A stretch of DNA of 54,987 nt from contig JAUSEN010000016.1 of NCBI GenBank assembly GCA_030650025.1, positions 75,428-130,414 on the forward strand, given 5' to 3'. This DNA comes from Candidatus Magasanikiibacteriota bacterium (lineage in GTDB: Bacteria; Patescibacteriota; Patescibacteriia; Magasanikbacterales; GWA2-37-8). Every line of letters begins with the position of its first letter. Positions within the stretch are counted from its first letter, which is position 1. A model generated the notes under the pieces. It saw only the letters and a list, made by a program, of their open reading frames with translations. It was not told the origin of the DNA and did not search any database. This document shows positions 790 through 52,794 of the stretch, piece by piece. The translations under genes were made by a program, and so were the position numbers.

Positions 790-2742
790 ATGGATTCAAA
801 GTTTATGCAGAATAATTTAGTGGAACTGGCGAAGTTGATTCGTTTTCACATTTTAACTTCCACCACGGCCGCGAGGAGCGGGCATCCGTCTTCGTCGCTT
901 TCGGCGACTGATTTGATGACAGTTTTGATGTTTTCCGGATTTTTTAAGGCTGATCTTGATCATCCAGCCAATCCTAATAATGACCGTTTGATTTTTTCGA
1001 AAGGCCACGCGGCGCCTCTGTTTTATTCGTTATACGCGGTGGCAGGTAAAGTGAGCGCGGAAGAAATGCTTACACTTCGCCAGTTTGGCTCGCGTTTAGA
1101 GGGGCACCCGACAATGTATTTTCCGTATACAGAAGCAGGGACGGGATCTTTAGGGCAGGGATTATCGATTGGGCTCGGTATGGCCTTGAATGCTAAGTTA
1201 GATAAATTACCATATAAAACATATGTTCTGCTTGGCGATAGCGAAATGGCCGAAGGCAGTGTGTGGGAAGCTATGCAATTGGCTGCGCATTATAAGTTGG
1301 ATAATTTAGTGGGTATTATCGATGTAAACCGGCTGGGACAGAGGGGGGAGACCATGTATGGGCACGATGTCGAAGGATATGCCAAGCGTGTTAGCGCCTT
1401 TGGCTGGGAGACGATTGTGATTGATGGGCATGAAGTTAACGAAATAGAAACGGCTTTTAGCGCTGCGCAAAAAATTACTGGGAAACCGGTGATGATTATT
1501 GCCAAGACTTTAAAAGGCAAAGGTGTTTCTTTTATTGAAAATAAAGACGGCTGGCATGGTAAGCCTTTGAATAAAGAAGAGTGTGAGAAGGCTTTATTAG
1601 AAATTGGAGAAGTAGATAAAAAGTTAGTTGGTAAAGTGGCGAGTCCTCCCCCTACCCCCTCCATTGCGATGGAGGGGGGTCGCGAACCCTCCCCTTCGCA
1701 AAGGGGAGGGCAGCCCGCCCGCAACGGCTTCGCCGTAGCGAAGTCGGGCGGGGGTGGGGTCTCGTATAAACTCGGCGATTTAGTTGCCACACGCAAAGCC
1801 TATGGCAATGCGCTAGTTAGGCTGATGGAAAGTTATAAAAATTTAGTAGTTTTAGATGCCGAGGTTTCTAACTCAACTTATAGCGAATTTGTTAAAAAAA
1901 CGCATCCGGAGAGATTTTTTGAAATGTATATTGCCGAGCAGAATATGGTGGGCGCGGCACTCGGGTTCTCGCGGCGCGGAAAAATTCCGTTTGTCTCCAC
2001 GTTCGCGGCATTTTTCGCGCGGGCGTTTGACCAAATCCGCATGAGCCAGTACGCGATGGAGATTAACCCCGACGCGCCTTCGGCGGTCGGGGCAGGCATA
2101 AAATTCGTAGGGTCACACGCAGGAGTCTCGATTGGCGAAGATGGCGCATCGCAGATGGCGCTAGAGGATTTAGCGATATTTAGAGCGATTTTGGGCAGTG
2201 TCGTGATGTACCCGAGTGACGCGGTTTCTTGCGAGAGGATTGCGGAATTGGCCGCAGACACGCCTGGTAATTTTTATATTCGTACTACGCGCAAAGAAAC
2301 ACTAGTGTTATATTCGCCAGAAGAAAAATTTGTGGTTGGCGGGAGTAAAGTCTTGCGCGAGAGTAAAAACGACGCGGTAACAGTGGTAGGAGCTGGGGTC
2401 ACGCTCCACGAAGCGCTGAAGGCCTATGAAGAATTGCAGAAAGAAAAGATAAATATTAGGGTGATTGATTTGTACAGTATAAAGCCATTAGACACAGCCA
2501 CGCTTCAGAAAGTGGCAGAGGAAACCAAAGCGATTATTACCGTTGAGGATCATTATGCCGAGGGCGGCCTAGGCGAGGCGGTGGCGTCCGCCTTTGTAGG
2601 GAACGCGTATACGCGTTCCCTACCGCGTATTGAGATGTTGGCTGTTCGCAAAATGCCGCGGAGTGGCAAACCAGCGGAATTATTGGCATACGAAGAAATT
2701 GACGCCGCGGCGATTGTAAAATTAGTTAAGAAGTTGTTGTGA
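790..2742 (+). CDS. tkt: Transketolase; short type with N- and C-terminal halves fused through a palindrome-encoded linker
   Basis: 650-aa ORF. The N-terminal half has thiamine-diphosphate-binding motifs (SGHPSSSLS, GSLGQGLS, GDSEMAEGSVWEA, IIDVNRLGQ). The C-terminal half has the pyrimidine-binding and C-terminal domains (RKAYGNAL, AEQNMVGAA, GEDGASQMALEDLA). Confidence 0.9.
   Translation: MDSKFMQNNLVELAKLIRFHILTSTTAARSGHPSSSLSATDLMTVLMFSGFFKADLDHPANPNNDRLIFSKGHAAPLFYSLYAVAGKVSAEEMLTLRQFGSRLEGHPTMYFPYTEAGTGSLGQGLSIGLGMALNAKLDKLPYKTYVLLGDSEMAEGSVWEAMQLAAHYKLDNLVGIIDVNRLGQRGETMYGHDVEGYAKRVSAFGWETIVIDGHEVNEIETAFSAAQKITGKPVMIIAKTLKGKGVSFIENKDGWHGKPLNKEECEKALLEIGEVDKKLVGKVASPPPTPSIAMEGGREPSPSQRGGQPARNGFAVAKSGGGGVSYKLGDLVATRKAYGNALVRLMESYKNLVVLDAEVSNSTYSEFVKKTHPERFFEMYIAEQNMVGAALGFSRRGKIPFVSTFAAFFARAFDQIRMSQYAMEINPDAPSAVGAGIKFVGSHAGVSIGEDGASQMALEDLAIFRAILGSVVMYPSDAVSCERIAELAADTPGNFYIRTTRKETLVLYSPEEKFVVGGSKVLRESKNDAVTVVGAGVTLHEALKAYEELQKEKINIRVIDLYSIKPLDTATLQKVAEETKAIITVEDHYAEGGLGEAVASAFVGNAYTRSLPRIEMLAVRKMPRSGKPAELLAYEEIDAAAIVKLVKKLL
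1655..1752. repeat. Three tandem GC-rich perfect hairpins inside the tkt reading frame
   Basis: Hairpin 1 is CCCCCTCCAT-TGCG-ATGGAGGGGG (1655-1678). Hairpin 2 is CCCTCCCCTT-CGCA-AAGGGGAGGG (1687-1710). Hairpin 3 is nested: CCCGCCCG...CGGGCGGG (1714-1752) with an inner CTTCGC/GCGAAG stem. GC content is far above the flanks. Confidence 0.85.
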
Positions 2743-2770
2743 GGGTGGCTGTAATTATACAGTATAATCG

Positions 2771-2810
2771 TTAACGTAGAGACGCCCTGGCAGGGCGTCT
2801 CTACGGTTAA
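2771..2810. repeat. REP-like palindrome, family A (the RAYT-associated family), between convergent tkt and gyrA
   Basis: Sequence is TTAAC-GTAGAGACGCCC-TGGC-AGGGCGTCTCTAC-GGTTAA. The 12-nt arms are identical to the copies at 35910-35938 and 36277-36305. Confidence 0.8.
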
Positions 2811-2859
2811 AAAATAATTTTTATAAATTTATTGCCTTTGCTTATAGAATTGTTACGCT

Positions 2860-2883
2860 GGCCTCTCGGCTGCGCTCGAGGCC
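2860..2883. repeat. Hairpin with conserved loop TCGGCTGCGCTC (family G)
   Basis: Sequence is GGCCTC-TCGGCTGCGCTC-GAGGCC. The same 12-nt loop consensus recurs at 17718-17729 and 36339-36350 on different stems. Confidence 0.5.
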
Positions 2884-2890
2884 TCTAAAT

Positions 2891-5347
2891 TTATAATATA
2901 GTGACAGAGGCAACCTTATCACCATCCTCCTTAAAACGCATCAATCTAACACCCTGGGTGGCGCGGCCAGAAGTGTTAATGGATTTAAATGGCAGGCGGA
3001 TAGCCTGGCCCTTCATGCTCATCATGACTAAATCATGTTCGTTAATATTGGCGCGATCCACGACGCGGGCGTAGACTAAAGGCCCGGTTTTGGCAGTGAC
3101 TTCGGCGGTTTTAATGCCCGAGCCGCCTCGCCCTTGGCATTTATATTCATCGAGAGCGGTGCATTTGCCAGTGCCGTTTTGGCCCACCACTAAAAATTCT
3201 AATTGTTTGGCTTTGGTGTCGATGATATCCATGCCGATAATGCGATCACTACCTTTTAGCTTCATGCCCCGGACGCCGCCAGCGGTGCGGCCCATGGCGC
3301 GAACGTCCGCTTCTTTAAAGCGAATGGCTTGGCCGCCCGAGGTTGCTAAAATAATATCATTGGCGCCATTTGAGGGCTTGACCCACTCGAGGTTGTCGTC
3401 GCCTTTGAGTTTGAGGGCGATGATGCCGCTTTTCCTAACGCTCGCGAAATCTTCGAGCGCGGTTTTTTTGATGGTGCCTTTGCTCGTTACCATTACGAGA
3501 TATTTAAAATCAGCTTTCTCGCCTACGGGGAGCATAGCGCTGATTTTTTCGTTGGGCGCAAGCTGTAAGAAATTTACCAGAGCCTGGCCTTTGGCTGTGC
3601 GGCTCGCTTGGGGGACATCATAGGCCATGAGTTGGAAGACGCGGCCGCGCGTGGTAAAGAAGAGGATGTTGTCGTGCGTGTTCATGGCGAGCGTTAAGTC
3701 CACGCTCTCGTCTTCTTTGGTAGTAACGCCAATCACGCCTTTGCCGCCGCGGCTTTGCTGGCGGAAGGTGTCGGGCGGAACGCGCTTAATATAGCCGTCC
3801 GTCGTAGTCATGACAATGGTCGGTTCGTTGGGGATCAAATCCTCGGTGGTAAATTCCTTAACACCGTGCGCGATGATTTGCGTTTTGCGCTCCGAACCGA
3901 ACCTGGTTTTCATTTCGACAGTTTCCGCTTTAATGACGCCAAGAATTTTTTGTTCCGAGGCGAGGAGAGTTTCCAAATCTTTAATAAGCGCCTTTTTTTC
4001 TTTTAGTTCGTCTTCAATTTTTTGGCGTTCTAAGTTAGCTAATTGCGAGAGGCGCATTTCCAAGATGGCCGTGGTTTGTTTATCGCTAAATTTGAATTTT
4101 TTCATCAGCTCTATCTTGGCCTCTTCTTTATCTTTAGAAGCTCTAATGGTTTTAATAACGGCGTCAATTTTGTCGAGCGCCATTTTTAGGCCTTCTAAAA
4201 TGTGGGCCCGATCCTTGGCTTTGTTCAAATCAAACTCGGCGCGGCGGCGCACGACCACTTGGCGGTGTTTGATAAATTCTTCCAAAACATTTTTGAGGTT
4301 CAAAATGCGAGGCTGAATGCCATCTACGAGCGCGAGCAAATTATAGTGGAACGTGGTTTGGAGAGCGGTTAAATTAAATAGCTGGTTAAGAATTTTTTTA
4401 GGGTAGGAATCTTTTTTAAGGTCCACCACGACGCGTACGCCGTCTTTGTTACTTTCGTCGCGCAGGTCTTTAATGCCTTCAATTTTTTTCTCTTGCACCA
4501 GGTTCGCAATTTTTTCGAGAAGCTCGGCTTTGTTTACTTGATAGGGCATTTCAGTGACGATTATTTGGTAGAGGCCGTTTTTAGCTTCTTGAATTTCGGC
4601 TTTGGCGCGCGTTACAATGCCTCCCCGCCCGGTAGCAAAGGCGCTGGCAATATCTTTTTTACTATAAATAATGCCGCCGGTTGGGAAGTCCGGGCCTTTG
4701 ATAATCTCGCTGATTTCTTCGATGGACGCTTTAGGGTGGTCAACAAGGTGAGTAACACCATCACATAGCTCGCTTAAGTTATGCGGCGGGACAGAAGTGG
4801 CCATGCCAACCGCAATACCAACAGTGCCATTCAGAAGCAGGTTCGGCACTTTGGCGGGCAAGACCTGGGGTTCTTGGTGGCTGCCATCATAGTTAGGCAC
4901 AAAATTTACAGTGTTTTTTTCAATATCGCTAAGCAGTTCTTCGCCAATAGCCGTGAGGCGCGCTTCGGTATAGCGCATGGCCGCGGCCGCGTCGCCGTCC
5001 ATACTGCCAAAGTTGCCTTGGCCGTCTACCAGGCGCTCGCGCATGGCAAAGTCTTGAGCCATACGGACTAAAGAGTCATAGATAGCGCTGTCGCCATGCG
5101 GGTGGTATTTAGCCATGACTTCACCAACGACGTTAGCGGATTTGCGAAATTTGGTGTTGTGGCGGAGCCCTAAGTTACCCATGGCATAAATAATACGGCG
5201 GTGCACGGGTTTTAAACCGTCCCGTACATCAGGCAGGGCGCGAGCGACGATAACGCTCATGGCATATTCTAGGTAAGAGCGTTTTACTTCATCAACTATC
5301 GGGGCGTTAGAAATTTTTCCCATCGAGCGCGGTTCAATTTCGGCCAT
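2891..5347 (-). CDS. gyrA: DNA gyrase subunit A
   Basis: 818-aa ORF with an N-terminal GyrA signature ([23 protein letters not shown]; catalytic Tyr region) and a C-terminal beta-pinwheel repeat region. Confidence 0.97.
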
Positions 5348-5372
5348 AGTTTTGTTAAGTTAGCGTGGAGAA

Positions 5373-5777
5373 TTATAAAGGATTATTTGGCGAGGTGGTA
5401 GCAGGAGTAGCGCTGGCAGGAGTGGAACTCTGGCTGCTAGTGGCCGCGGTTTGAAGCAGTTGGCCAATTATTTGGCTAAGCCTGGCGCGAGCGGAAATAG
5501 CGTTGTTTTGATTTTCGGCACGATCGGCAAAAGCTTGGTTCCAGTCCTGCTTCACTTCTTTAAAGAGTTTGGCATCAGCGCCTTTTTGCCAGAGGGAAGT
5601 TTCCATCTGGACTTTGAGCGAGATTCCCCAAATGACAGCGATCAGGGCTCCAAGGCCAAAGACCCCAATCCACATCCAGGACTCGGCAGAGCGTTTTTTA
5701 GCGTCGTAATATTTGCCAATAATAGAGCGCGGGTCAGAGGAAATTTTAGATTTTTTATCGCCTTTTTTAGCGGGCAT
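5373..5777 (-). CDS. Hypothetical single-pass membrane protein
   Basis: 134-aa ORF packed tightly between gyrA and the upstream gene on the same strand. It has a basic N-terminus, one hydrophobic helix (WMWIGVFGLGALIAVIWGI) and a Ser/Thr/Pro-rich tail. No family was recognised. Confidence 0.55.
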   Translation of the reverse strand: MPAKKGDKKSKISSDPRSIIGKYYDAKKRSAESWMWIGVFGLGALIAVIWGISLKVQMETSLWQKGADAKLFKEVKQDWNQAFADRAENQNNAISARARLSQIIGQLLQTAATSSQSSTPASATPATTSPNNPL

Positions 5778-6668: not shown

Positions 6669-7970
6669 ATGAGTATTCTTGACCCAAAAAACGAGGAGAA
6701 AACCGCCGTAAATACTGATAAGAACGATTTTAAAACATTATTTCAAAACTACGCGGTGAATATTCCCAAAGTGGGGGAAATTATTAAAGGCGCCGTCGTG
6801 GCCGTGGAGCGGGGGGGCGTTCATATTGATATCTCGGGTTTGACCACGGGCGTGGTGCGAGGCCGGGAACTTTTTGTTGAATCCAGTGAATACGCTAATT
6901 TGAAAGTGGGCGACGAAGCCGAGGCCACGGTTTTAGAATTAGAAAACGAGAACGGCGAGATGGAGCTTTCTTTCCGCTCGGCGGGATTCCGCAAAGCGTG
7001 GGACCAAATGAAAAAACTCATGAAGGATGGGGTGGCCATTAAAGCCAAGGTAACGGGTGCCAATAAGGGCGGTCTCATAATGCAGGTGGACGCGATTTCT
7101 GGTTTTATGCCCGTGTCCCAACTGTCTCCAGATAATTATCCGCGCGTCGCGGGCGGCGATAAGATGAAAATTTTTGAGAAACTCAAAGAAATTGTGGGTA
7201 AAGAAGTGGAAGTGAAAGTGATTGACGTTAATGAAATGGAAGAGAAATTGATTGTGTCGGAGCGCGCCGTGTGGGAAGACTCGCAAAAGGCCGTGCTCGA
7301 TACTTATAAAGTTGGTGACGCGGTGGATGGCGAAATTTCGGCTCTCACCACTTTTGGCGCTTTCATGAAATTTGGTGAAGGCTTGGAAGGCTTAATTCAT
7401 ATTTCCGAAATTGCTTGGCAGCGTATTGACCACCCGAAAGATGTTTTAAAAGTAGGACAAAAAGTGAAAGCGCAAATTATTCAGCTTGACCACGCCAAGA
7501 TCTATCTCTCCATCAAGCGTACAGTAGAGGATCCGTGGAAAAAGGCTAAAGATAAATTTACAGTTGGTTCTACAGTAAAAGGCAGAATTATCAAGATTGA
7601 AAACTTTGGTTTAATGGTAGCGCTCGACACCGAAATTCATGGTTTGGCGCATGTCTCCGAGCTCTCGGACACGCCGGTTGCTAATTTAAACGACAAATTT
7701 AAAGTGGGGCAAGAAATGGAATTTGAAATCGTGAATTTAGAACCAGCCGAACATCGCCTTGGCCTCAAAGTGCCGGGGGTGAAGGGCAAAGCGCCGAAGA
7801 AACCGGCCAAGGCTGTGGAAGAGAAAAAGACAGAAGAAAAGCCAGCCGAAGAAAAGTCTGTTGAAAAATCAGTTGAAGAAAAATCCGTTGAGGAAAAGAC
7901 AGAAGAGAAGCCGGTTGAGACGGCTCCGGCTGTAGCCGAAGAGAAGCCCGTGGAAAATAAAGTTGAATAA
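6669..7970 (+). CDS. rpsA: 30S ribosomal protein S1 with a Lys/Glu-rich repetitive C-terminal tail
   Basis: 433-aa ORF with repeated S1/OB domains (GEIIKGAVVAV, GVAIKAKVTG, GDAVDGEISALTTFGAFMKF, GSTVKGRIIKIENFGLMVAL). The tail contains EKSVEKSVEEKSVEEKTEEKP tandem repeats. Confidence 0.9.
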   Translation: MSILDPKNEEKTAVNTDKNDFKTLFQNYAVNIPKVGEIIKGAVVAVERGGVHIDISGLTTGVVRGRELFVESSEYANLKVGDEAEATVLELENENGEMELSFRSAGFRKAWDQMKKLMKDGVAIKAKVTGANKGGLIMQVDAISGFMPVSQLSPDNYPRVAGGDKMKIFEKLKEIVGKEVEVKVIDVNEMEEKLIVSERAVWEDSQKAVLDTYKVGDAVDGEISALTTFGAFMKFGEGLEGLIHISEIAWQRIDHPKDVLKVGQKVKAQIIQLDHAKIYLSIKRTVEDPWKKAKDKFTVGSTVKGRIIKIENFGLMVALDTEIHGLAHVSELSDTPVANLNDKFKVGQEMEFEIVNLEPAEHRLGLKVPGVKGKAPKKPAKAVEEKKTEEKPAEEKSVEKSVEEKSVEEKTEEKPVETAPAVAEEKPVENKVE

Positions 7971-9597: not shown

Positions 9598-11451
9598 ATG
9601 AAATATTTCGCGAAGAATTTCCTCATTGTTTTTTTGGCTTTGTTTTTAATTGCCGGAGTTTTGGGCATGATTAAATCTGGAGAGAGCAAGAAACCGGAAA
9701 CGGTTGGCGTCGCTAAACTGGTGGAAGAAATTAATGCCGGAGCGGTAAAACAAATTACGATTCAGGGCGACCTTTTGAAAGTGGTGTTAAAAGACGAGAA
9801 GGCCAAGCCGCAAGAGATTAAAAAAGAAAGCCGGGAGTCGTTTGGCGACATCATGAAGAACTACGGCGTGACTGACGAAGCGCGCAAAAATATTCAGGTG
9901 GAAGTGAAAGAAGACAGCGCCTGGAAGGTGTGGGCGATCAATATTATTCCGGCGCTTTTGCCCTTAATTTTGATAATGGTATTTTTCTTTTTCATGAGCC
10001 GCGGCGTCGCGGGAATGAACAACAAGGCCATGGGTTTTGGCACTAGCAATCCGCGCGAAGTTAAGCCGGATGAGCAGAAAGACAAGAAAACTTTCGCCGA
10101 TGTGGCCGGGGCTAAAGAGGCTAAGCAAGAGCTGGAAGAAGTGGTGGATTTTTTGAAAGATCAAAAAAAGTTTGTTGCCATGGGCGCGAAGATTCCGAAG
10201 GGCGTATTATTAATGGGGGCCCCTGGTACCGGCAAAACACTTTTAGCTAAGGCGGTTGCGGGCGAGGCGAGCGTACCCTTTTTTCACATGAGCGGCTCGG
10301 AATTTGTGGAAATGTTTGTGGGGGTGGGCGCGTCGCGCGTTCGGGATTTATTTTCTAAAGCCAAAAAAGCGGCTCCGGCGATTGTTTTTATTGATGAAAT
10401 TGACGCGGTTGGCCGCCGGCGCGGCGCGGGCTTAGGCGGCGGGCATGATGAGCGCGAGCAGACCTTGAACCAAATTTTAGTAGAAATGGATGGGTTTGAC
10501 CCTAACTCCGGCGTGATTGTGATGGCCGCCACGAACCGGCCCGATGTCTTAGACCCGGCGTTACTCCGGCCCGGGCGGTTTGATCGCCGGGTTATTATTG
10601 ACATGCCTGATATTAAAGATCGCGAAGAAAATTTGCAGATTCATGCCAAGGGCAAACCACTCGCGAGCGATGTTAATATTCGCATTATCGCGGAGCGGAC
10701 GCCCGGATTCTCGGGGGCGGATTTGGCGAACCTCATGAATGAAGCGGCGATTTTGGCAGTGCGCCGCAGCCGTAAGGATATTACCATGGACGAAATTTTG
10801 AATAGTGTGGAAAAGGTAATGCTCGGGCCGGAGCGAAAGAGCCGAGTGATCACGGATCGTGATAAAAACATGACCGCGTACCACGAAGCCGGGCACGCGA
10901 TTGTTGGCTTTATTCTCCCTAATTCCGATCCGGTACGCAAAGTGTCCATAATTAGTCGCGGCGCGGCCGGGGGCTACACTTTGAAAATGCCGAGCGAAGA
11001 TAAACACTACCACACCTTAGCGCAGTTTAAAGATGAAATTGCCATGGCGATGGGAGGATACGTGGCCGAGAAAATGATTTTTGGCGAGGCCAATGTTTCA
11101 ACCGGCCCATCGAGCGACCTCAAAAGCGCTACTAAAATCGCGCGCGACATGGTGACGCGCTATGGCATGAGCGCGCTACTTGGCCCGCGGACGTTTGGCG
11201 ACCACGAGGAACTGGTGTTTTTGGGCGGCCGTACTCAAGAAGATAGAGACTACAGCGAAAAAACAGCCGTGGAAATTGACGCGGAAATGCGCGCCCTGGT
11301 TGAGGAAGGGCAAGAGCGGGCTAAACAGGTGATTTCCAGCCACAAGGATAAGCTGGAAGCCATGGTGAAAGTTTTGTTGATAAAAGAAACTATGGAACAG
11401 GCGGATATTGAAGCAGTAATGGGCGGGCCGCAGAAAAAGAATATATCTTAA
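9598..11451 (+). CDS. ftsH: ATP-dependent zinc metalloprotease FtsH
   Basis: 617 aa. Has two TM helices, AAA+ Walker A (GAPGTGKT), Walker B (IVFIDEIDA), SRH ([19 protein letters not shown]) and the zinc site HEAGHA. Confidence 0.97.
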
Positions 11452-35133: not shown

Positions 35134-35158
35134 ACCCTGCACCAGAACGGTGCAGGGT
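35134..35158. terminator. Palindrome family B copy acting as a bidirectional terminator (small ORF on +, RNase P RNA on -)
   Basis: ACCCTGCACC-agaac-GGTGCAGGGT. On the minus strand it is followed by TTTATTTT. The 23-nt core is identical to that at 46473-46495. Confidence 0.7.
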
Positions 35159-35161
35159 GAA

Positions 35162-35617
35162 CATTACGATAAGCCGAATTCTGTCCCCGCCTCCTCGGCG
35201 GATGGTAATCATTTATCTGGCCTAGTTATTGCTAACTAGATCTTAGCTAGTTTTGGCCCCTCGATAAACTCGGGGCTTTAGCTTCGCTAAAGCGAGCGAA
35301 CTTTTCGAAACACCCGCCTCCGCCCGTGAGGGCTTCGGCGTGGCGCAGCGCTGCTCTTGCACTCAAGTAAGGATTTAGCCGTTTCACCTCTGGCCTTTTT
35401 GCCCTTGACCAAAGTTAAGCTATAATCGCTGATAAATCAGCTATTTGGGGCGAGCTCTCTTTGCCTTTTCAGACAAAGACGTCACTGATCGCACCTCGTC
35501 CCGACATTAAGCCGGGAGGTGGGTGTTACCCACTACCTGTGTCCCGCCTCATCGGCGGGGAGTGTTCGGACTTTCCTCTCCGACGCGCTGACGCGGTCGG
35601 AGCGATTACCTGTAATG
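35162..35617 (-). ncRNA. rnpB: RNase P RNA (bacterial type A-like, enlarged)
   Basis: The minus strand contains GAGAGGAAAGTCCGAACAC (CR-I: GAGGAAAGUCCG) near the 5' end and GGACAGAATTCGGCTTATCG (CR-V: ACAGAAnnCGGCUUA) near the 3' end. It also has GGTAACACCCAC and GAGGTGAAACGG internal motifs. The P1 candidate is CATTAC/GTAATG. Ends are approximate. Confidence 0.85.
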
Positions 35618-35674
35618 AACGTTGGGCATATTAACATAAATGGCGGGTTTTGTCAATGGGCAATCGTAAGATTA

Positions 35675-36250
35675 TTAGATTTTATACATTTCATCCTCGA
35701 TCCATTTTTCGGGATTGCTTTTGATGTATTGTCTTATATTGATTAATGATTTTTGGTTTCGTATAACATGATCATGAAAACGGGATTGCCAGGCGAATTC
35801 GGATTCGATTGGGCGAATTCTTTTGGTACAAACCATTTTAAATTGATTGATAATCGAACCCAATGAATTTGATTTCCATTCTGCTCGTTTACCGCCAGTA
35901 CGTGTGTCCGTAGAGACGCCCCGCCGGGGCGTCTCTACAATGTTGGCCAACACATTCGCGCCACGGGGCGCGCCTACTATGCCAATTATTAAATGAACAT
36001 GATTGGGCATAATTACCCAGGTATCAATATCAATATTTGGTCGAATGATGGCTGTTTTTAATAATTCTTCTTCGGCAATTTTACCGACTGAAGATAATTC
36101 CATTACGCCTTTGTTTACATCGCCAAAATATTTTTCTCGATTTTTTGTGCAAATCGTTACAAAATATAAACCGGTCGAGGAATAATCATATCCTGGCAGT
36201 CGGTTTGATGGTATGCGGTATTTATGTAAATATTTATTTTCAACAGACAT
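35675..36250 (-). CDS. IS200-like Y1 (HUH) transposase, REP-associated tyrosine transposase (RAYT)-type
   Basis: 191 aa. HUH motif in VIMPNHVHLII and catalytic-Tyr region NIRQYIKSNPEKW. Single gene with no partner TnpB. Flanked by, and containing, family A palindromes. Confidence 0.85.
   Translation of the reverse strand: MSVENKYLHKYRIPSNRLPGYDYSSTGLYFVTICTKNREKYFGDVNKGVMELSSVGKIAEEELLKTAIIRPNIDIDTWVIMPNHVHLIIGIVGAPRGANVLANIVETPRRGVSTDTRTGGKRAEWKSNSLGSIINQFKMVCTKRIRPIESEFAWQSRFHDHVIRNQKSLINIRQYIKSNPEKWIEDEMYKI
35904..35940. repeat. REP-like palindrome family A copy inside the RAYT reading frame
   Basis: GTGTCC-GTAGAGACGCCCCGCCGGGGCGTCTCTAC-AA. Read on the minus strand it encodes IVETPRRGVSTDT between the HUH motif and the SLGSIINQFK helix. 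Confidence 0.85.
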
Positions 36251-36270
36251 AATTATTATACCTGTTTTTT

Positions 36271-36321
36271 GTGTCCGTAGAGACGCCCCGGCGGGGCGTC
36301 TCTACAACGGGGCGTCTCTAC
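36271..36321. repeat. REP-like palindrome family A copy plus an extra half-site, immediately upstream of the RAYT start
   Basis: GTGTCC-GTAGAGACGCCCCGGCGGGGCGTCTCTAC-AA followed by CGGGGCGTCTCTAC. The first 37 nt differ from 35904-35940 by one dinucleotide in the loop. Confidence 0.85.
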
Positions 36322-46471: not shown

Positions 46472-46500
46472 CCCCTGCACCAGAACGGTGCAGGGTTTTT
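46472..46500. terminator. Palindrome family B copy with U-tract (terminator for the + small ORF and the - rplS)
   Basis: AAAAAAACCCCTGCACC-agaac-GGTGCAGGGTTTTTT. Confidence 0.78.
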
Positions 46501-51693: not shown

Positions 51694-52794
51694 CTAGTTT
51701 AAGTTTTTGATAAATTCATTCAAATTCTTCGGCAGGGAAGATTCGAATTCTTGTTTTTTTCCAGCCAAATCCGTAAACCCAAGTTTAGTGCTGTGCAAAA
51801 ATAGCCGGCCACATTTCTCGTCCAAATTCTTCTTGCGTTTTTTTTGAAAGTAAAGCGAGTCGCCAACGAGAGGGTGGTTATAGGCTAAAAAGTGCACGCG
51901 AATTTGGTGCATGCGGCCGGTGTGCAAGAAAACACGCACGAGTGTGCAATTGGCAAAAACTTTTTCGGTAATATATTCGGTATGCGCTTCTTTGGCACCT
52001 TGAGGAATGTAGGGAGTGACGGGCAGGGCAGCCATGCGGTCGTTATTTTCGCCCCGCGCGATCGGGAAGCGCAGGTGCTCCCAATCGCGTTCGACTTTGC
52101 CATGCACTAGAGCCAAGTATTCTTTAGTAATCTCTCGATTTTTAAATTGATTTTTTAAATTTTCGAAAGATTTTTGAGTGAGAGCCACGACCATAAGGCC
52201 AGAGGCTTCTCTATCTAATCTGTGTACTATTCCCGGTCTAATGTTAGTACTTGAGGATAACTTGCCCCGCACCGGGCCGCGTAGCGGCTCTGGTGCGGGG
52301 TCGCCCACGGTTTTTATTTTGGGAAATTTTTTGATAAGCCAGGATGCTAGGGTGTTGGTTTCGTTTGCTTGGGTGGGATGTACTAATAAACCAGATGGTT
52401 TATTTAAAATTACAAATTCAGAATTTTTAAAAATAATTTCTGGTTCTAACTTCTTTATTGTTGGCTTGTTTTTTAAGAGAGAATTAACGCCCCCTCTCCT
52501 TCGCAAAGGAGAGGGTTGGGGTGAGGTTTCGCTCGCAATGACGACAGTGTCACCCGCGCGCAAGGGCTGGCCGTGTTTGGTGGCGAGCATATTGTTTATC
52601 AAAACTAGCCTCTGGTCGATTAGTTTTTGGATTTGGGAACGAGAAATTCCGGCCAAATCTGTTAAAGCAATATCGAGGCGGGTTTTAACAGCGCCTTCGG
52701 GAATAATAAATTTTTGTCCTGATTTTTTGACAGAAGTCCTTGGAGATTTTTTGGCGGTGGCTTTGGATTTTATCATAATTATTTTAGCGGTCAT
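51694..52794 (-). CDS. rluD: 23S rRNA pseudouridine synthase, RluD/RluA family, with two palindrome-encoded insertions
   Basis: S4 domain (RLDIALTDL...SRSQIQKLI), catalytic motif GIVHRLDREASGLMVVA and HQIRVH. Confidence 0.9.
   Translation of the reverse strand: MTAKIIMIKSKATAKKSPRTSVKKSGQKFIIPEGAVKTRLDIALTDLAGISRSQIQKLIDQRLVLINNMLATKHGQPLRAGDTVVIASETSPQPSPLRRRGGVNSLLKNKPTIKKLEPEIIFKNSEFVILNKPSGLLVHPTQANETNTLASWLIKKFPKIKTVGDPAPEPLRGPVRGKLSSSTNIRPGIVHRLDREASGLMVVALTQKSFENLKNQFKNREITKEYLALVHGKVERDWEHLRFPIARGENNDRMAALPVTPYIPQGAKEAHTEYITEKVFANCTLVRVFLHTGRMHQIRVHFLAYNHPLVGDSLYFQKKRKKNLDEKCGRLFLHSTKLGFTDLAGKKQEFESSLPKNLNEFIKNLN

Follow-up and report, generated by a model that had tools for sequence, protein, structure and literature searches.

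In-frame TM/BoxC-type palindromic repeats in the inter-domain linker of a Candidatus Magasanikiibacteriota transketolase

Results

A fused transketolase with hairpins at its domain boundary

The region studied here is a 54,987-nucleotide (nt) window, the whole stretch of DNA that was analysed, of contig JAUSEN010000016.1 of a Candidatus Magasanikiibacteriota bacterium from a groundwater metagenome. The window contains tkt, a gene for a fused transketolase of the human type, and the coding sequence of tkt contains three GC-rich perfect hairpins (hairpins 1-3; Table 1). The TKT protein carries all three transketolase domains in one chain (Pfam Transketolase_N at amino acids (aa) 13-269, Transket_pyr at aa 332-503 and Transketolase_C at aa 520-642), exceeds the cutoff of the NCBIfam transketolase model NF004559 (851 bits against 488), and has human TKT as its best match in the PDB (~596 bits over aa 10-649), which together identify it as a fused short, human-type transketolase. 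Its best 119 homologues are from the Candidate Phyla Radiation (CPR)/Patescibacteria, for example Magasanik-, Doudna- and Daviesbacteria, and are mostly 606-615 aa long.

The residues encoded by the hairpins, aa ~286-323, lie between Transketolase_N and Transket_pyr. Among the chains of split transketolases, PDB 6yak aligns with aa 9-273 and 6yaj with aa 323-649, and the hairpins therefore lie exactly at the split point. The original prediction, made from the letters of the sequence, had described the three hairpins and had placed them exactly between the thiamine pyrophosphate-binding and the pyrimidine-binding halves; the hairpins are present as described, and the Pfam, 6yak and 6yaj matches bear the placement out. 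The antisense strand of the hairpins is open as well, as had been noted, with an open reading frame (ORF) at 1290-1796.

Hairpins 1 and 2 form an inverted doublet of TM-type units, and hairpin 3 is nested in it

Hairpins 1 and 2 had been taken for plain palindromes. Instead, each belongs to a three-block motif resembling TM_ECO, a G/C-rich intrastrand triplex motif earlier named BoxC or PIT (Holder et al. 2015, Nucleic Acids Res, PMC4666352), and the two motifs are arranged as an inverted doublet. Specifically, G-rich or C-rich blocks beyond the hairpins first noticed are found at 1645-1652 and 1752-1759. The minus-strand block GGGGGAGG is a perfect mirror of the purine arm of hairpin 1, GGAGGGGG, whereas the mirror block of hairpin 2 lies 41 nt from its arm, compared with a linker of 2 nt in other copies. 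The displacement is exactly 39 nt; hairpin 3 therefore represents an independent element that sits within the turn of the second unit.

The outward third blocks of the two units pair as an outer stem in both the DNA and the RNA folds of 1640-1765. Hairpins 1 and 2 thereby have a REPIN-like layout, an inverted doublet forming one long hairpin, and the same layout is seen at loci L106, L119, L121 and L122 from other assemblies (see below). The translation of the tkt doublet is SPPPTPSIAMEGGREPSPSQRGGQ.

These structures are far from random expectation. No 24-mer matches of hairpins 1 and 2 are expected by chance (100 shuffles), perfect GC-rich hairpins with a stem of at least 10 number 8 in the window against 0.28 expected (maximum 2 per shuffle), and 3 of the perfect hairpins of this stem length are in tkt against 0.007 expected from shuffles. 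The 126-nt segment 1640-1765 folds with z = -5.8 as DNA and -6.2 as RNA, its mRNA structure amounting to about -83 kcal/mol.

The insert sites are empty in the closest available relative, and the domain fusion is older than the insert

The hairpin-coded residues have no counterpart in any of the 119 aligned homologues and are also missing from human TKT. The inter-domain linker is hypervariable across these homologues; enzymes of the family, human TKT included, are as a rule fused and carry such a linker, with a median of 36 aa over the compared stretch. The closest available syntenic relative (L126) shares the gene order RNase III - tkt - gyrA - S1 - ftsH with the window, at amino acid identities of 76% for tkt and 85% for gyrA. 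Both sites at which the tkt of the window carries an insert, one in the linker and one in Transket_pyr, are empty in this relative. No intragenic GC-rich perfect hairpin was found in its 21.8 kb, where the hairpins are terminator-like and intergenic.

The linker of the window tkt is 24 aa longer than that of the relative, whereas ~38 of its residues are element-coded; the elements therefore replaced a variable linker core besides lengthening the linker, and the net lengthening by elements is about 20 aa. That the elements created the gene fusion can be rejected, since fusion and linker are found throughout the family. As judged from the alignment, the domain fusion itself is ancestral and the elements were inserted into a pre-existing linker. 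The original prediction, that an element family had built or expanded the linker of a fused tkt gene, thus holds for the expansion and replacement of the linker core, and not for the building of the fusion.

The doublet belongs to a variant subfamily of TM/BoxC repeats

A degenerate version of hairpins 1 and 2, used to scan a single genome from each species, revealed a widespread repeat family. More than 115 genome loci among the matches listed carry the hairpin together with an asymmetric G-rich tail. Most of the loci among those matches are in Chloroflexota, with several copies per genome; the other hosts there are Bacteroidota, Armatimonadota, Peribacteria, Gastranaerophilales, a Firmicute, an actinobacterium and a Magasanikiibacteriota metagenome-assembled genome (MAG). 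Conservation ends sharply beyond ~42 nt, where the information content falls to zero, and the consensus is C-CCCTCTCCAT-YGCR-ATGGRGAGGG-G-nnn-GGGGGGTGAGG.

Hairpin 1, hairpin 2 and a further copy in rluD share the architecture of the TM motif. All three consist of a C-rich arm, a short loop and a G-rich arm (10-bp stems, 4-nt loops), followed by a second G block that mirrors the first, with 8 allowed triads in hairpin 1 (linker 2), 10 in the rluD copy (linker 3) and 9 in hairpin 2 (linker 41). Like TM motifs, the family is multi-copy across genomes, with sharp borders, at these loci as well as on contigs of the source sample. By inspection, the window copies do not conform to the exact published pattern, CCCTCNCCC-N3-6-GGGNGAGGG-N3-GGGNGAGGG; their 8-nt blocks, their innermost A/T pairs and the arm CCCCCTCC in hairpin 1 thus mark a variant subfamily that escapes the TM_ECO regular expression. 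Nor are they intergenic, as TM_ECO always is in E. coli K-12, since copies lie within tkt, rluD and the secA gene of another MAG. On these sequence features, hairpins 1 and 2 and the rluD copy are a variant subfamily of the TM/BoxC family, with triplex formation predicted.

In 74 copies taken from other genomes (loci L001-L115), the third block and the purine arm covary, which fits a structural constraint acting on the three blocks together: G faces G in 23/23 cases and A faces A or T in 51/51, a signal to which subfamily descent and the filter applied (at least 7/8 triads) also contribute. The covariation includes 7 TM copies in which T is kept in the pyrimidine arm, giving a G:T pair. These 7 copies hint that the strand with the G tail is the structured one. 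Neither the window nor 15 loci with canonical copies matched any Rfam family at its gathering score, and a whalefall-1 match of 18 bits against 37 was rejected as chance.

The same doublet occurs in secA of another MAG and in multiple copies in the source sample

The Magasanikiibacteriota MAG nzgw347 (L106) carries the same doublet in frame within secA, the identity of which is confirmed by its Pfam SecA domains. Compared with the tkt doublet, it has the same loop order, a near-identical spacer and the same reading frame, with 8 triads at linker 2 in both of its TM units. It reads NPPPTPSTVVEGGREPSPSQWRGQGEGS, and its second hairpin is followed directly by CA+GGGTGAGGG, without the nested element. 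This secA gene (about 2435-5575, minus strand) has ~125 extra residues at SecA aa ~165-290, which split the SecA_DEAD domain and include the peptides VIPSAAEGSR, GRNDSGQRS and LARDDK, all of hairpin-element type. A doublet of the same design is intergenic in an unrelated 596-kb metagenome contig (L119), the single match of the metagenome doublet scan.

Parts of 1646-1764 are shared by 30 contigs of the source sample, with a summed depth of up to ~470 compared with 10-15 for the flanks. Doublet variants comprising hairpin 1, spacer and hairpin 2 occur there as a unit, one with a TT insertion after 1685, and other contigs carry the junction of hairpins 2 and 3 or hairpin 3 alone (2-4 mismatches). 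Furthermore, 4 other contigs of the sample match exactly the 37-40-nt span of the rluD copy, which is read as SPQPSPLRRRGG between the S4 and the catalytic domains, at a point where E. coli RluD has a 13-aa gap. The recurrence of hairpin 2 in rluD at 52492-52515, as previously pointed out, is real and differs by one compensated pair. The 15-nt sequence GTCATTGCGAGCGAA upstream of this copy (52528-52542), a look-alike of the start of the long-hairpin family found in the tkt linkers of loci L116 and L118, was not counted; it encodes conserved RluD residues. The search for further hairpin copies has thus found them in another MAG, in many phyla and on other contigs of the sample.

Several searches gave little or nothing. 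Viral contigs yielded only 3 matches for the hairpin and none for hairpin 3, and therefore no sign of a phage vector. The 43-aa insert peptide found no candidate in a large protein database, and a HMMER search of 1.84 billion representatives returned two unrelated repeat proteins only. The hairpin 3 and GTAG-REP patterns were not found in the loci retrieved.

The assembly was checked against the Logan unitigs of the source run (k=31 graph), which reproduce 1200-2900 with zero differences. Within this stretch, 1646-1764 is fragmented into four short unitigs that are common to other loci and have a depth of 18-40, compared with 10-15 for the flanks. Locus-specific unitigs enter the insert from both sides, one (1200-1673) extending into hairpin 1 and the other (1735-2284) beginning within hairpin 3, and one 64-nt unitig (1656-1719, depth 18) bridges hairpins 1 and 2 and runs into the beginning of hairpin 3. 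On the basis of the unitigs, the assembly is almost certainly correct.

Palindromic elements recur in the tkt linkers of the Candidate Phyla Radiation

Linkers at least 8 aa above the median are found in 17/120 tkt homologues, scattered over the tree, and strong hairpin elements are present in the linker of all six expanded-linker homologues for which DNA was read. The tkt linkers of L116 (3001-4881) and L118 (1852-3729) contain long hairpins of the GTCATTSCGA... type, GTCATTSCGARCGAAG...CTTCG..TCGCAATGAC, a family that encodes peptides such as RHSERSEESH and VIANEVKQS. That of L117 contains several hairpins, that of L120 a TM-like unit, and those of L121 and L122 head-to-head TM doublets, with a palindrome nested in the spacer in L121. 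The scattered expansions, together with hairpins in all six cases, thus make the tkt linker a recurrent landing or tolerance site.

The insert is predicted to form a disordered loop on an intact enzyme

AlphaFold2, run with an 80-sequence alignment, gave a confident model of the enzyme, with a mean predicted local distance difference test score (pLDDT) of 87.7 and a predicted template modelling score of 0.89. The pLDDT falls below 50 precisely at aa 297-321, in the linker insert, and at aa 425-432, in the second insertion described below, and neither segment has secondary structure. The insert is thus predicted to be a disordered loop on an otherwise intact enzyme, and the intact reading frame suggests that the linker segment is translated. 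By inspection, 5/6 frames of the doublet are without stop codons; the elements are nearly stop-free, and frame-preserving copies can therefore be read through.

Other palindromic elements in the window

The phenomenon is wider than originally described, with further inserts in tkt and rluD, an interrupted RAYT-like (REP-associated tyrosine transposase-like) gene and colonised linkers in other CPR lineages. The second tkt insertion (2053-2092) carries the hairpin CCCCGAC..GTCGGGG at 2067-2092, folds at -21 kcal/mol, and is missing from all 119 homologues, human TKT and L126. No extra unitig depth was seen at 2053-2092, and the element is therefore single-copy in the sample at 95% identity. The 28-nt palindrome at 2596-2623 shows no clear length excess compared with the homologues. 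The second rluD element (52261-52301) corresponds to ~20 extra aa relative to E. coli RluD, and its span is matched by one other contig of the sample with 4 mismatches, the match ending at the element borders.

The elements at 2596-2623, 2775-2805, 35910-35938 and 36277-36321 start with GTAG and end with CTAC. Hairpins 1-3 lack the terminal GTAG/CGTC tag of REPs; in hairpin 3 (CGTAG at the apex) and in 52261-52301, GTAG occurs only in the loop. The REP of 2775-2805 is common to contigs of the sister samples X2 and X3. The RAYT-like gene matches NF047646 with E 1.6e-17 and 63.7 bits, or 71.7 bits after removal of the REP-coded residues, below the cutoff of 80; its best PDB match is E. coli TnpArep (4er8), with the HUH motif and the WQxRF..YIxxNP motif aligned. 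The GTAG REP at 35910-35938 interrupts this gene in frame. A second imperfect GTAG palindrome lies next to it, at ~35950-35975; together, the RAYT-like gene and its REPs make up a REPtron-like unit (35675-36321).

Other strong local folds of the window, such as 10409-10592 in ftsH, encode conserved motifs and were dropped as ordinary coding sequence. The same terminator-like hairpin, CCCTGCACC-agaac-GGTGCAGGG, occurs at 35134-35158 and 46473-46495, each time followed by a T run at gene ends, and the pair may represent a further small repeat family. A bacterial class A RNase P RNA lies at 35154-35621 on the minus strand (76.5 bits against an Rfam gathering score of 100, E 2e-23; missed by the default scan); with 468 nt compared with 367 nt in the model, it probably carries insertions. 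An S1-domain protein has a 30-aa Glu/Lys/Pro/Val-rich C-terminal extension (7878-7967) that is missing in L126 and is not palindromic. GC skew is positive in every 2-kb bin of the window (0.06-0.23) regardless of gene orientation, which suggests that a single replichore holds the whole window.

Table 1. Coordinates of the transketolase gene, its linker insert and the other palindromic elements of the window
Feature	Position	Strand	Basis or remark
tkt, fused human-type transketolase, 650 aa, host of the inserts	790..2742	+	ORF list, Pfam, NCBIfam and PDB matches
Whole linker insert, head-to-head TM-type doublet plus nested third hairpin; encodes roughly SPPPTPSIAMEGGREPSPSQRGGQPARNGFAVAKSGGGG	1645..1759		triad check
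Third block of hairpin 1, GGGGGAGG after a 2-nt linker	1645..1654	-	8/8 allowed triads
Hairpin 1, CCCCCTCCAT-tgcg-ATGGAGGGGG, perfect 10-bp stem, 4-nt loop	1655..1678		sequence
Spacer between hairpins 1 and 2, 8 nt, GTCGCGAA	1679..1686		L106 equivalent is GGCGTGAA
Hairpin 2, CCCTCCCCTT-cgca-AAGGGGAGGG, perfect 10-bp stem, 4-nt loop	1687..1710		sequence
Nested element with hairpin 3, 39 nt, 13 codons, parting hairpin 2 from its third block	1713..1751		triad check
Hairpin 3, nested, CCCGCCCG..CTTCGC-cgta-GCGAAG..CGGGCGGG	1714..1752		sequence
Third block of hairpin 2, GGGTGGGG(T), mirroring the purine arm GGGGAGGG, T opposite A	1752..1760	+	nine triads
Second in-frame tkt insertion, aa 422-434 (AMEINPDAPSAV/G; aa 424-434 EINPDAPSAVG), in Transket_pyr	2053..2092		alignment
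Perfect 28-nt palindrome with arms GTAGGGAACGCGTA and TACGCGTTCCCTAC, GTAG..CTAC ends, read VGNAYTRSLP, in a variable loop of the C-terminal domain	2596..2623		sequence
GTAG-type REP, CGTAGAGACGCCCTG-g-CAGGGCGTCTCTACG, 33 nt 3' of the tkt stop codon	2775..2805		family also at 35910-35938, 36277-36321
RAYT-like gene	35675..36250	-	NCBIfam NF047646, Pfam Y1_Tnp, PDB 4er8
GTAGAGACGCCCCG-type REP cluster directly 5' of the RAYT-like gene	36277..36321		sequence
Second rluD hairpin element, CCCCGCACCGGGCCGC-gta-GCGGCTCTGGTGCGGGG, strongest of the window, -34 kcal/mol	52261..52301		folding
Single TM-type element in rluD, antisense to the gene, CCCTCTCCTT-cgca-AAGGAGAGGG-TTG-GGGTGAGGTT	52489..52528	+	ten triads, linker 3

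Discussion

Proposed insertion of repeat DNA into a pre-existing linker

We propose, with a probability of roughly three in four, that 1645-1759 is selfish, non-autonomous repeat DNA that landed in the hypervariable linker of an ancestrally fused transketolase and was retained in frame. The family is palindromic, apparently mobile and inserted in frame, as originally predicted; this is upheld by the doublet in secA, the more than 115 loci among the matches listed, the multiple copies in the sample and the empty sites. Its copies were probably moved by transposition, and the insert is probably translated and neutral, as the sequences suggest.

A scenario for the origin of the insert starts from a TM-type unit, which would comprise a C-rich and a G-rich arm separated by a 4-nt loop and then, past a turn of 2-3 nt, a further G block that mirrors the first. 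An inverted, REPIN-like pair of such units would have landed in the linker, and a 39-nt hairpin of another family would have nested in the turn of the second unit. Copies with a frame-keeping net length would be translated into a disordered surface loop rich in Pro, Gly, Ser and Arg, while gene-breaking copies would be purged by selection; the linker insert would have been kept because it is harmless there. The same process may account for the second hairpin in a loop of the pyrimidine-binding domain, the two rluD elements and the GTAG REP in the RAYT-like gene and, in other CPR lineages, for the other palindromic families in the tkt linker. Genic copies would be conspicuous because CPR genomes hold little intergenic space. 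The mover would most likely be a HUH/Y1 enzyme that recognises hairpins in single-stranded DNA at replication forks, and for the GTAG REPs such a mover is plausible, given the RAYT-like gene.

Several observations weigh against the proposal. The insert spans 115 nt, which is no multiple of three, and part of the old linker must therefore have been lost simultaneously or later; neither a target-site duplication nor the exact borders of insertion could be made out. Only two loci of the 55-kb window, tkt and rluD, carry TM units. Neither the window nor the literature, including the study of Holder et al., who found none, links a transposase to the TM family, and the repeats that flank and interrupt the RAYT-like gene are GTAG REPs rather than TM units. 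Finally, the elements at 2053-2092 and 2596-2623 are single-copy in the sample (95% identity), so that these two are at most putatively mobile.

The proposal can be taken further: beyond being tolerated, TM-type and other palindromic repeats might be a regular source of linker and loop sequence in the CPR, homing to single-stranded turns, with the structure at the domain boundary affecting expression. We regard this extension as rather improbable. If it were true, homing to the turns of folded DNA would explain the nesting and the repeated hits in the tkt linker, and a boundary hairpin or triplex could act as a translational pause or as a recombination hotspot favouring domain fusion and fission.

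Alternative explanations

Of the alternatives to insertion, a function of the hairpins themselves survives best, although we consider it unlikely. The hairpins could have been retained as an mRNA structure that pauses ribosomes between the two halves, or as a DNA hairpin or triplex in recombination or replication, in line with a structure that is very stable and far past that of shuffled sequences, with its location exactly between domains, and with the covariation of the third block with the purine arm. TM motifs are, moreover, triplex-forming in vitro and tied to local genome instability (PMC4666352). However, the closest relatives and most homologues manage without the insert, and the same elements also lie inside domains, in secA, rluD and the RAYT-like gene, and in intergenic DNA. 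That many CPR lineages carry palindromic elements in this linker would fit a function, but it would be expected equally if no other site is as tolerant as the linker, and different, unrelated families fill the linker in different lineages.

Slightly less likely still is an origin of the palindromes in place, via replication template switching or via quasi-palindrome correction and slippage in a low-complexity linker. Template switching yields perfect stems, such as those seen here, and no target-site duplications were seen. For hairpins 1-3, however, this origin is contradicted by the sequences already at hand: a gene of another MAG contains the same sequences over >60 nt, spacer and loops included, hairpin 1-3 sequences occur on many other contigs of the sample, and hairpins 1 and 2 are members of a family whose loci, more than 115 among the matches listed, are spread across phyla. 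It may apply to the single-copy elements 2053-2092 and 2596-2623, which are unique in the sample at 95% identity.

An assembly artefact, with repeated unitigs mis-threaded and the three hairpins lying apart in the real tkt, would fit the splitting of 1646-1764 into four short, raised-depth unitigs also used by other loci, but is very unlikely, given that locus-specific unitigs span both junctions, that the 64-nt unitig connects hairpins 1, 2 and the start of 3, that the unitig path is identical to the window, that the tkt reading frame is intact, and that the independent assemblies L106, L121 and L122 have the same doublet architecture.

Implications

Insertion of selfish repeats, as preferred here, has practical consequences. 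Alignments of CPR proteins are inflated and distorted by such inserts, which also break up unitig graphs within genes and create spurious antisense ORFs; annotators and phylogeneticists are advised to mask them. The inserts also mark enzyme loops that tolerate 10-40 extra residues.

Comparison with known systems

The GC clusters of yeast and fungal mitochondrial genomes are likewise GC-rich mobile palindromes in an AT-richer genome, and occur in frame in var1. Compared by description, they differ from the elements described here in residing in an organelle, in belonging to other sequence families and in their presumed mechanism.

Further parallels are the Rickettsia palindromic elements (RPEs), which Ogata et al. 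reportedly described in 2000 as selfish palindromes in frame in essential genes. Like RPEs, the tkt elements lie in frame in a conserved gene, are missing from its orthologues and are predicted to be read as surface segments, and the host genome is small with little intergenic space. Unlike the window units, which are 37-40 nt long, stacked or nested, and members of a cross-phylum family, RPE-1 is ~100-150 bp, and RPEs comprise unrelated families restricted to Rickettsia; the two are set apart here by description, not by sequence. The analogy with RPEs, which had been drawn from the outset, is apt, and in-frame intragenic REPs have already been documented, with dimers adding 20-30 aa, clusters adding 43-82 aa, and palindromes within palindromes (Di Nocera 2013, PMC3733652).

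REP/REPIN elements, associated with RAYT transposases (Nunvar 2010 PMC2817692; Bertels & Rainey 2011 PMC3116915), resemble the present elements in being short GC-rich palindromes that often form a longer hairpin as inverted doublets, with in-frame copies in conserved genes and palindromes inside palindromes. The window contains a RAYT-like gene, scoring below the family cutoff, that is flanked by GTAG REPs. The linker hairpins differ from REPs in having no GTAG/CGTC tag, and the repeats next to the RAYT-like gene are of another kind. Only the palindromes at 2596-2623 and 2775-2805 and the cluster at 35910-36321 are of the GTAG type. A literature search found no paper pairing REP/RAYT with Patescibacteria.

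The closest counterpart of hairpins 1 and 2 is TM_ECO, of which 3610 copies are known in 262 proteobacterial genomes and 23 in E. coli K-12, where they are always intergenic and have no linked transposase; in vitro the motif makes a triplex, and local genome instability has been linked to it (PMC4666352). Shared with TM_ECO are the C-rich arm (CCCTCNCC..), the short loop, the complementary G-rich arm (GGNGAGGG), the 2-3-nt turn and the mirrored second G block, as well as the T or A opposite A in the mirror block. Both are also multi-copy, ~35-40 nt long and sharply bordered, occur singly or as inverted ("palindromic") pairs, and have no known linked transposase. Unlike TM_ECO, the window copies have blocks of 8 nt instead of 9 and two extra A/T pairs closing a 4-nt YGCR loop, and hairpin 1 is a CCCCCTCC/GGAGGGGG/GGGGGAGG variant; and whereas TM_ECO was reported from Proteobacteria and, in E. 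coli K-12, always from between genes, the CPR copies are genic and in frame, one being split by a nested element.

Against these precedents, what appears to be new is the CPR as host clade, the genic location of TM/BoxC elements, the nested doublet within a gene, the occurrence of the same doublet in two genes of two MAGs, and the repeated colonisation of one linker. The writing of selfish palindromes into essential proteins, as in Rickettsia, would thereby extend to the Candidate Phyla Radiation, and also to TM/BoxC, a family of obscure origin previously thought strictly intergenic, for whose mobility the genic copies with empty sites, the nesting and the doublet in two genes offer the clearest sequence evidence so far.

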